Origin: Octopus sinensis
Taxonomy: Eukaryota
Length of the DNA stretch: 64,000 nucleotides
Assembly: GCF_006345805.1 (NCBI RefSeq)
Contig: NC_043003.1
Span: 1,922,001 to 1,986,000 of the forward strand
Reading direction: 5' to 3'
In this document: piece after piece, positions 30,413 to 30,474 of the stretch
Position numbering within the stretch: position 1 is the stretch's first letter
How the letters are laid out: every line of letters begins with the position of its first letter
Notes under the pieces: generated by a model
The model's input: only the letters and a program-made list of their open reading frames with translations
The model's database searches: none
Told to the model about the DNA's origin: nothing
Position numbers and translations under genes: made by a program

Positions 30413-30474
30413 TCCCTTCATCAGTTGTCCCCTGTTTTATCTACTTCGCGTTTCAAAAGTAGGGACAAGATGTG
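30413..30474 (-). ncRNA. Candidate non-circularly permuted hammerhead ribozyme, copy B (more decayed)
   Basis: CACA-TC-TTGTCCCT / ACTTTT-GAAA-CGCG / 14 nt / GGGGACAA-CTGATGA-AGGGA. Confidence 0.6.

Follow-up and report, generated by a model that had tools for sequence, protein, structure and literature searches.

Intact copies of a repeat in the genome of Octopus sinensis are predicted to encode an RNA that folds into six helices, carries the complete set of hammerhead core bases, knotted in their order, and probably self-cleaves after UH, a reading to which we give a probability of roughly three in four. Covariation shows the order of the parts in this putative ribozyme to be 5'-IVa-V-II-bridge-III'-UH-I-II'-GAAA-III-bridge'-I'-CUGAnGA-IVb-3'. 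That the six-helix fold (I, II, III, bridge, IV and V) is real we regard as nearly certain, and cleavage, given the fold, as decidedly probable from the sequence. Judged by its strand order, the fold is of the knotted SGC/CSG class set out in the available parts of Eckert et al. (2023, PMC10085705), but with a split block C: A9 and G10.1 are unjoined, and helices IV and V are inserted between them. The fold is none of the six types of that scheme because block C is split.

Results

Copies in the window

The window is the whole stretch of DNA analysed here, 64,000 nucleotides of contig NC_043003.1. Its features are collected in Table 1.

Table 1. Features of the window discussed in the text (positions in the window; A and B denote copies)
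Feature	Position	Strand	Remark
Whole copy A	26320..26772	-	non-autonomous repeat truncated at its 5' end; subfamily A, young (98-100% alike in the best 40 relatives)
A, region matched to copy B	26588 to 26528	-	stem I UCGCCUU/AAGGCGA
A, helix IV 5' strand	26652..26656	-	pairs with 26532-26528, immediately 3' of A9
A, helix V hairpin	26610..26651	-	abuts helix IV on one side, G10.1 on the other
A, stem II 5' strand GAAGG	26605..26609	-	G10.1 first; pairs with CCUUC 26573-26569
A, bridge helix 5' strand	26595..26603	-	pairs with 26554-26546
A, block S	26577..26588	-	III' CAUG, U16.1, H17 = A, stem I 5' strand
A, predicted cut	between 26583 and 26582	-
A, block G	26561..26573	-	II' CCUUC, GAAA, III CGUG
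A, I' AGGCGA, CUGAAGA, helix IV 3' strand AGGGG	26528..26545	-
Whole copy B	30255..30555	-	5'-truncated non-autonomous repeat, subfamily B, (TA)n end
B, stretch under study	30413..30474	-	surviving 3' two-thirds of ribozyme; predicted inactive
B, ~10-nt deletion join	30494..30495	-	helix IV 5' strand lost; against four longer B copies
B, ~40-nt deletion join	30480..30484	-	CAAA microhomology; same gap against 4/4 longer subfamily B copies
B, III' CACA	30474-71	-
B, UC (UH)	30470-69	-
B, predicted cut site	between 30469 and 30468	-
B, stem I 5' strand UUGUCCCU	30468-61	-	then a single A
B, CUUUU	30459-55	-	strand before GAAA
B, GAAA	30454-51	-
B, CGCG (stem III)	30450-47	-
B, 14-nt linker	30446-33	-
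B, stem I partner strand GGGGACAA	30432-25	-
B, CUGAUGA	30424-18	-
B, AGGGA	30417-13	-
Third copy, subfamily F	52700..52930	-	5'-truncated; only I', CUGAUGA and 3' end left
Neighbour, broken Penelope-clade element	27425..30250	-	separate insertion, where copy B ends in (TA)n
Neighbour, RT frames	30025-29165 and 29222-28824	-
Neighbour, C-terminal GIY-YIG	28896-28399	-	weak Pfam match, GIY-YIG E 0.028
Neighbour, ordinary type I hammerhead	27508	-	short palindromic stem III
Neighbour, inverted type I hammerhead copy	30167	+	in inverted partial terminal repeat 30150-30250

Copy A is intact, with all six helices kept and a few G-U pairs; its pseudoknot-free fold is no more stable than those of shuffled sequences (z -0.75). 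Beside it, an inverted fragment (25900-26020) resembles the 3' terminus of copy A's own repeat family. Copy B retains, from 5' to 3', III', UH, I, II', GAAA, III, the 3' strand of the bridge, I', CUGAUGA and the 3' strand of helix IV. Its deletion of about 40 nt took the 3' arm of helix V together with the 5' strands of stem II and of the bridge, and further changes turned C11.1 to U and altered two CpG positions in III'. Copy B is predicted to be a dead ribozyme copy, in which the fold cannot form, because this deletion and that of about 10 nt removed strands of stem II, the bridge and helix IV.

Much of what the first-pass annotation had said of copy B was borne out. The core motifs UH, GAAA and CUGAnGA are present, both 14-nt distances (UH to GAAA, and the linker) hold in copies A and B, and the CpG decay proposed for stem III, CACA opposite CGCG, fits copy B. 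The four stem I changes reported against UCGCCUU/AAGGCGA of copy A are there as well, with C-G giving way to U-A at pairs 2 and 4 and U-A to C-G at pairs 6 and 7; three of the four are unambiguous, because pair 7 borders the bridge helix and its 3' base is able to pair either way. The poor stem II of copy B is real, but decay is only part of its cause: the partner then assigned was wrong, and the true partner, which falls outside 30413..30474, has been deleted. That account lacked three of the helices as well as the carrier, which is Penelope-like (Naiad-type).

Stems I and III and the catalytic core

Copies were collected as 429 raw motif matches, 237 of them distinct and passing the family profile, and 232 were assigned on their 3' spacer to 11 groups, B1 and B2 being split on II'. 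The nine homologous subfamilies have consensuses 47-96% alike, and family N is unrelated to them in sequence. Subfamily J (three copies, two truncated) was kept in swap tests with n = 11 and left out of those with n = 10 and of the switch counts.

Stems I, II and III together are paired in 96.4% of 252 cells in 17 copies, against 32-45% in slid registers, and 11 of their 15 pairs show double changes. Among the nine homologous consensuses, stem I is Watson-Crick in 51 of 54 cells with at least six switches, and stem III in 43 of 45 with at least five. When partners were swapped between subfamilies (n = 11 consensuses), the observed pairing was reached in 0 of 20,000 swaps for stem I and in 0 of 20,000 for stem III. 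This covariation supports the earlier proposal that the scrambled, non-circular hammerhead core has been under selection across subfamilies. The consensus predicted at that time, CGCG-UC opposite GAAA-CGCG, was found in subfamily B, its two CpG positions being weak (about 50-60% of copies).

The CUGAnGA and GAAA core occurs in 10/10 consensuses, an invariance that is partly built in because most copies were found through GAAA and CUGAnGA patterns and the parser barred G at H17; full stems were nonetheless found at that offset. Variation in the core follows catalytic rules: N7 is free (U or A), H17 is A, C or U across subfamilies, and U16.1-A15.1 is fixed as U-A in 10/10 consensuses. The pair adjoining GAAA, G10.1-C11.1, is G-C in all ten. 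Genome-wide, four motif patterns match 2,085, 1,822, 2,822 and 3,067 places against 0, 16, 2 and 32 in reversed controls; these counts overlap, and each is a lower bound. For the alignments, MAFFT shifts the S block by one column in subfamilies F and G of alignment A3 (where stem I scores 78%) and in G of A2, alignment A1 began too late and was excluded from scoring, and the bridge was left out of alignment scoring because its register shifts.

Assignment to types I, II or III of Rfam was rejected, the blocks here not standing in circular order; at gathering score Rfam gave 0 matches in the window, the type I and candidate hammerhead cores included. Between 26300 and 30700, the 14 matches at E up to 5 contained no hammerhead family, so that even the type I motif of the neighbouring element went undetected.

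Stem II

Stem II had been placed between AGGGA and the strand before GAAA. This pairing fails, with 57.6% of cells paired in the strict register and none of the four downstream registers tried being subfamily-specific. The Watson-Crick stem II predicted for the consensuses does exist, with an upstream partner about 41 nt 5' of GAAA: 45 of 45 cells in the nine homologous subfamilies are Watson-Crick, with at least three switches. The 5' strand lies ahead of the cleavage block, at a distance of 40-43 nt from GAAA (35 nt in N), and the stem takes the forms GAAGG/CCUUC, GAACG/CGUUC and GAGCA/UGCUC, with GACAC/GUGUC in N.

All 85 of 85 cells of this stem are paired in 17 copies, and swaps (n = 11 consensuses) matched the observed pairing in 6 of 20,000 trials; the swap test took the upstream strand by best match, its place being fixed in the 17-copy test and in the genome scan. 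Both strands vary together among the 184 scored copies, the remaining 48 of 232 having been excluded because of truncation or deletion close to the motif. A position-fixed scan of the genome returned 3,067 places against 32 in the control. Read by eye, 93 of the 100 matches listed are fully Watson-Crick and of two types (52 GAGCA/UGCUC and 41 GAAGG/CCUUC), and seven are imperfect. The stem II switches amount to three events, not hundreds.

GAAGG is found twice in subfamilies A-E and H, once as the stem II strand and once spanning G8-A9-IVb. A symmetric off-state, in which IVa pairs with II and II' with G8-A9-IVb so that the core is switched off, is possible in these subfamilies; we claim no conserved switch because the alternative pairing is impossible in F and G.

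Bridge and helices IV and V

The linker 3' of II pairs with the linker 5' of I' to form the bridge (swap test 1/20,000, n = 11). Bridge and stem III make one long arm, the loop of which (UH, I, II' and GAAA) pairs with both flanks. Between the two helices, GA stands on both strands in 8/10 consensuses, and the G-A pair is absent on one strand in subfamilies A (the youngest) and C. A kink-turn has a 3-nt bulge beside tandem G-A and A-G pairs, and this junction may be one; the canonical geometry was seen by eye in N, F and H and is absent in A and C. Where present, the tandem G-A pairs likely kink the arm.

The hairpin of helix V ends immediately 5' of G10.1, and IVa, the strand 5' of helix V, pairs with the bases immediately 3' of A9. 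No spare bases lie between IV, V and II in 9/9 homologous subfamilies, and both RNA ends exit through helix IV. Swap tests with n = 10 consensuses gave 5/20,000 for helix V and 37/20,000 for helix IV, the minimum numbers of Watson-Crick switches in the nine homologous subfamilies are 3 and 1, and 95.6% and 92.9% of cells, respectively, are paired in 17 copies. Helix IV shows one double change among homologous subfamilies, with further support mostly from other Naiads, by eye; in the Naiad tail of the O. sinensis genome it consists of three pairs and a mismatch. Family N, which our script misfolded for helices IV and V, was read by eye.

The carrier repeat and its neighbours

Copies A and B belong to a high-copy repeat of the 2.7-Gb genome, with 1,591 and 2,949 first-look candidates and at least 3,000 copies of the non-autonomous Penelope-like repeat overall; a random sample of 40 stretches of 10 kb contained one copy, a number too small to give a density. 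The unit is non-coding and about 790-870 nt long (period 790 in locus L032; spacings 855-867), is usually 5'-truncated, and carries the ribozyme fold about 200 nt before its (TA)n end. Among 140 loci, second copies are direct in 15 and inverted in 13. (TA)4+ follows 123 of 129 end motifs, in a genome itself rich in TA runs, and a 30-40-nt tail is seen (L044, L110). In four subfamilies this tail ends at AA|GTAAG (L044, L053, L110, L172, L177), which resembles the 5' splice site at the Penelope terminal-repeat boundary. Judged on its 5' truncation, tandem and inverted copies, (TA)n and tail, the carrier is a non-autonomous Penelope-like element.

The searches for an autonomous partner returned none. 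No Penelope-like frame is linked within 1.5 kb at the 140 loci, and the upstream sequence common to copies stops within one unit of about 800 nt. The broken element next to copy B, with RT motifs that we recognised by eye and take to be of the Penelope clade, was rejected as carrier: it has its own type I hammerhead, and its RT occurs at 1/140 motif loci, the window's own. A Neptune-like partner was likewise rejected, the end motif being absent, bar one inserted copy, from 20 loci drawn from the best 150 matches of an endonuclease search; these 20 loci showed no family-wide CUGAnGA 3' of the frame. That Neptune-like family (L296-L315) has 19,171 first-look candidates, its top 150 matches being 90-100% alike. 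A search with the RT piece of Naiad gave 101 matches, with broken frames only. The term Naiad-type rests on common fold and habits because the autonomous partner was not found, the O. sinensis Naiad is old and broken, and subfamily A is young (median identity 1.0).

The window holds other elements. Type I hammerheads of a common family, with one A added between A9 and G10.1, lie at 5415 (+), 31337 (-) and 56021 (+), and further candidate hammerhead cores at 1834 (+), 14970 (-), 51678 (-) and 56293 (+). Another interspersed repeat (families D13-D19) occupies 4084-45908 and 56648-56870 in at least 16 copies, partly as 184- and 226-nt tandem arrays.

Naiad elements

In the available parts of Craig et al. 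(2021, PMC8557442), no canonical hammerhead is reported for Naiads; some records are flagged 'HHR_core' or 'HHR_half_core', and the structure is not given. A motif built from the octopus Naiad records of that work matches 184 places in the O. sinensis genome against 0 in the control. Family N is the tail of these records and shows the same fold in different letters; it lies downstream of RT remnants at 3/6 loci (L332, L334, L336).

Inspected by eye in the parts of the supplement consulted, at least 9 of the 54 published Naiad consensuses end in the split fold, with one more weak case, the first record, in which stem I has 2-3 pairs. Names were seen for Naiad-3_Chem, Naiad_Plae and Naiad_EuTe, and record order points to Naiad-2_Movir, three Acropora and two Octopus records, so named by eye. 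The hosts showing the fold by eye are a hydrozoan, a box jellyfish, corals, an acanthocephalan, a crustacean and octopuses. These readings cover 60 of 62 core matches for one variant and 10/43, 10/23 and 10/25 for others, and line breaks in the supplement hide some matches.

In supplement parts 13-16, seven nematode Naiad 3'-end matches are of type CSG by eye, with full stems and a bridge; one of them carries an extra U between A9 and G10.1. By eye, CUGAnGA is absent near the element end in Naiad_Ppla and Naiad-1/2_Chem as printed. Naiad-1/2_Chem and records near Naiad-2_Skow have in common a short GC-rich 3' motif with hairpin arms and no hammerhead core, which could be a different structured RNA. 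Spider and ostracod Naiads (supplement parts 17-19) have CCC before CUGAnGA and GAAA upstream, fit neither the split nor the CSG form, and are possibly further permutations.

On balance we lean towards knotted hammerheads, in split form or as CSG in nematodes, being the ribozymes that much of the Naiad clade had seemed to lack. The split form would then be a seventh natural architecture: an active ribozyme with a break in its core between A9 and G10.1, which two stacked helices close, and with the cut RNA caged and so kept assembled. Together the two forms would show one permutation turning into another as the I'-CUGAnGA strand moves across a tandem terminal repeat.

Discussion

The closest relatives of the octopus fold are types SGC and CSG, both of which cleave in vitro; the available text of Eckert et al. 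(PMC10085705) describes SGC as absent from the genomes of known organisms and CSG as known from two sequences, in metagenomes only, and gives non-circular hammerheads as environmental sequence with one weak bacterial exception. Its authors assume that block C, CUGAnGA with its two stem strands, is uninterruptible. Like SGC (HRIMA-1 and variants), the octopus fold has the order S, G and then I'-CUGAnGA, three crossing stems, a short link from stem I to II' and a Watson-Crick helix that connects stems I and II at their distal ends. It departs from SGC in having the 5' strand of stem II ahead of block S, a pair of helices separating A9 from G10.1, a bridge connected with stem III through each of its strands, and thousands of copies in an animal genome. 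Filing it as SGC was rejected, that type having a stem II strand within 1-2 nt 3' of CUGAnGA where the octopus fold has none. With CSG it shares the handedness of block order and the sequence II, bridge strand, S, G, but I'-CUGAnGA stands at its 3' end and before stem II in CSG.

Among mobile elements, the Penelope pLTR hammerheads are of type I and min-HHR (Cervera and de la Pena 2014, PMC4209133). As in these, the motif lies near the 3' end of a Penelope-like repeat and has an addition between A9 and G10.1 (one base in pLTR); in contrast to these circular-order type I motifs, often with short palindromic stem III and dimeric, it has full stems and three further helices. The repeat shares with Naiads (PMC8557442) the (TA)n targets, 5' truncation, tandem and inverted copies, 30-40-nt tail and, at several ends, the fold, but is without a reading frame and without sequence likeness to the Naiad tail of the same genome. 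Non-LTR retrozymes (bioRxiv 10.64898/2026.07.22.740005) are similarly non-coding, tandem-capable, hammerhead-bearing and tied to Penelope-like elements; they carry type I hammerheads, and most octopus copies, unlike them, are single and truncated. In the pseudoknot hammerhead of Zhan et al. (2024, PMC11300833), too, pseudoknot pairing takes the role of helix II and there is an extra helix, but its connectivity is pistol-like and its 'helix IV' is a stem-loop whose loop makes the pseudoknot, with no A9/G10.1 insert. Our literature search, which reached few subscription papers, found no non-circular hammerheads in animals or Penelope-like elements and no helices between A9 and G10.1 in a tested hammerhead; the alignments of Eckert et al. 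may hold split-core or animal examples.

An insert at this step is plausible because it already accepts one extra base: in natural hammerheads of a viroid and of Penelope elements such a base occurs, with reported effects from 3-4-fold faster to strongly slower cleavage, C or G slowing it strongly (PMC3705267, PMC4209133). We propose that the core would take the usual hammerhead geometry and be cut after H17, with the bridge replacing the stem I-II loop contact. Folding would be delayed until the last strand is transcribed, because CUGAnGA-IVb is made last. Cut products would stay paired because four helices (IV, II, the bridge and III) span the cut, and the assembled products could favour re-ligation or circles. 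The ribozyme may cut tandem transcripts into unit lengths, the processing of tandem precursors being the job proposed for Penelope hammerheads (PMC8557442, PMC4209133), or may define the 3' region for retrotransposition.

The alternatives differ in what they leave of this model. The fold could be real and no longer catalytic, serving as an RNA 3'-region handle for the element's reverse transcriptase-endonuclease or a host protein. Non-autonomous elements must retain what their partner binds; in vitro cleavage by metazoan Penelope hammerheads is poor, with room left for other functions (PMC4209133); and many successful Naiads seem, in the records available, to be without the motif. Against this stand variation by catalytic rules, across subfamilies 47-96% alike and in unrelated Naiads, and the use by nematode Naiads of CSG, a type with an intact core that has been shown to cleave; we consider a purely non-catalytic role unlikely. 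Less probable again is an ordinary SGC hammerhead, whose stem II would join the strand before GAAA to the bases that follow CUGAnGA, with one A bulged, the upstream matches being accessory. With one base bulged, the strand after A9 does pair with II': 91% of 68 cells are paired, and there is one double change. Penelope hammerheads usually leave a base unpaired 5' of stem II (PMC4209133), and the same GAAGG stands at both places in most subfamilies. These pairs are mostly G-U, however, and are not subfamily-specific (39 against 38.9 in swaps), and changes of II' to CGUUC or UGCUC are matched by the upstream strand, not the downstream one. In other Naiads, by eye in the records inspected, no G10.1-C11.1 pair is open to the bases that follow A9, their partner being the 5'-most strand.

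Tandem and inverted copies are common (the 15 and 13 loci noted above) and metazoan Penelope hammerheads act as dimers (PMC4209133), which would fit action in trans, the strands of two tandem units forming a circular-order hammerhead. All six helices are able to form within about 130 nt of one copy, though, and stem III is a full 4-5 bp helix and no short palindrome. Strand exchange cannot, moreover, yield a continuous A9-G10.1 link with a covarying partner, because CUGAnGA never precedes the stem II strand, and we hold this reading to be very improbable. Finally, RNAfold gives copy B one long hairpin (z -2.66), and cell counts overstate independence because the copies are related, so that a simple hairpin might be all that is conserved, or the pairings might stem from DNA-level repeats and common descent. 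Double changes in each of three mutually crossing helices, and unrelated Naiad tails that repeat the pattern in other letters, leave this hardly credible, and the knotted six-helix ribozyme is the reading that we prefer.

If the fold cuts, a split-core hammerhead would be abundant in an animal genome and would have been missed by descriptor searches, and both the unbreakable blocks of PMC10085705 and the picture of Naiads thriving without canonical hammerheads in PMC8557442, as presented in their available parts, would need revision. It would offer a short RNA with natural compensatory variants and, for switch design, a new site of insertion in the small ribozyme that has been studied best; it may also provide a handle on what hammerheads do for Penelope-like elements.
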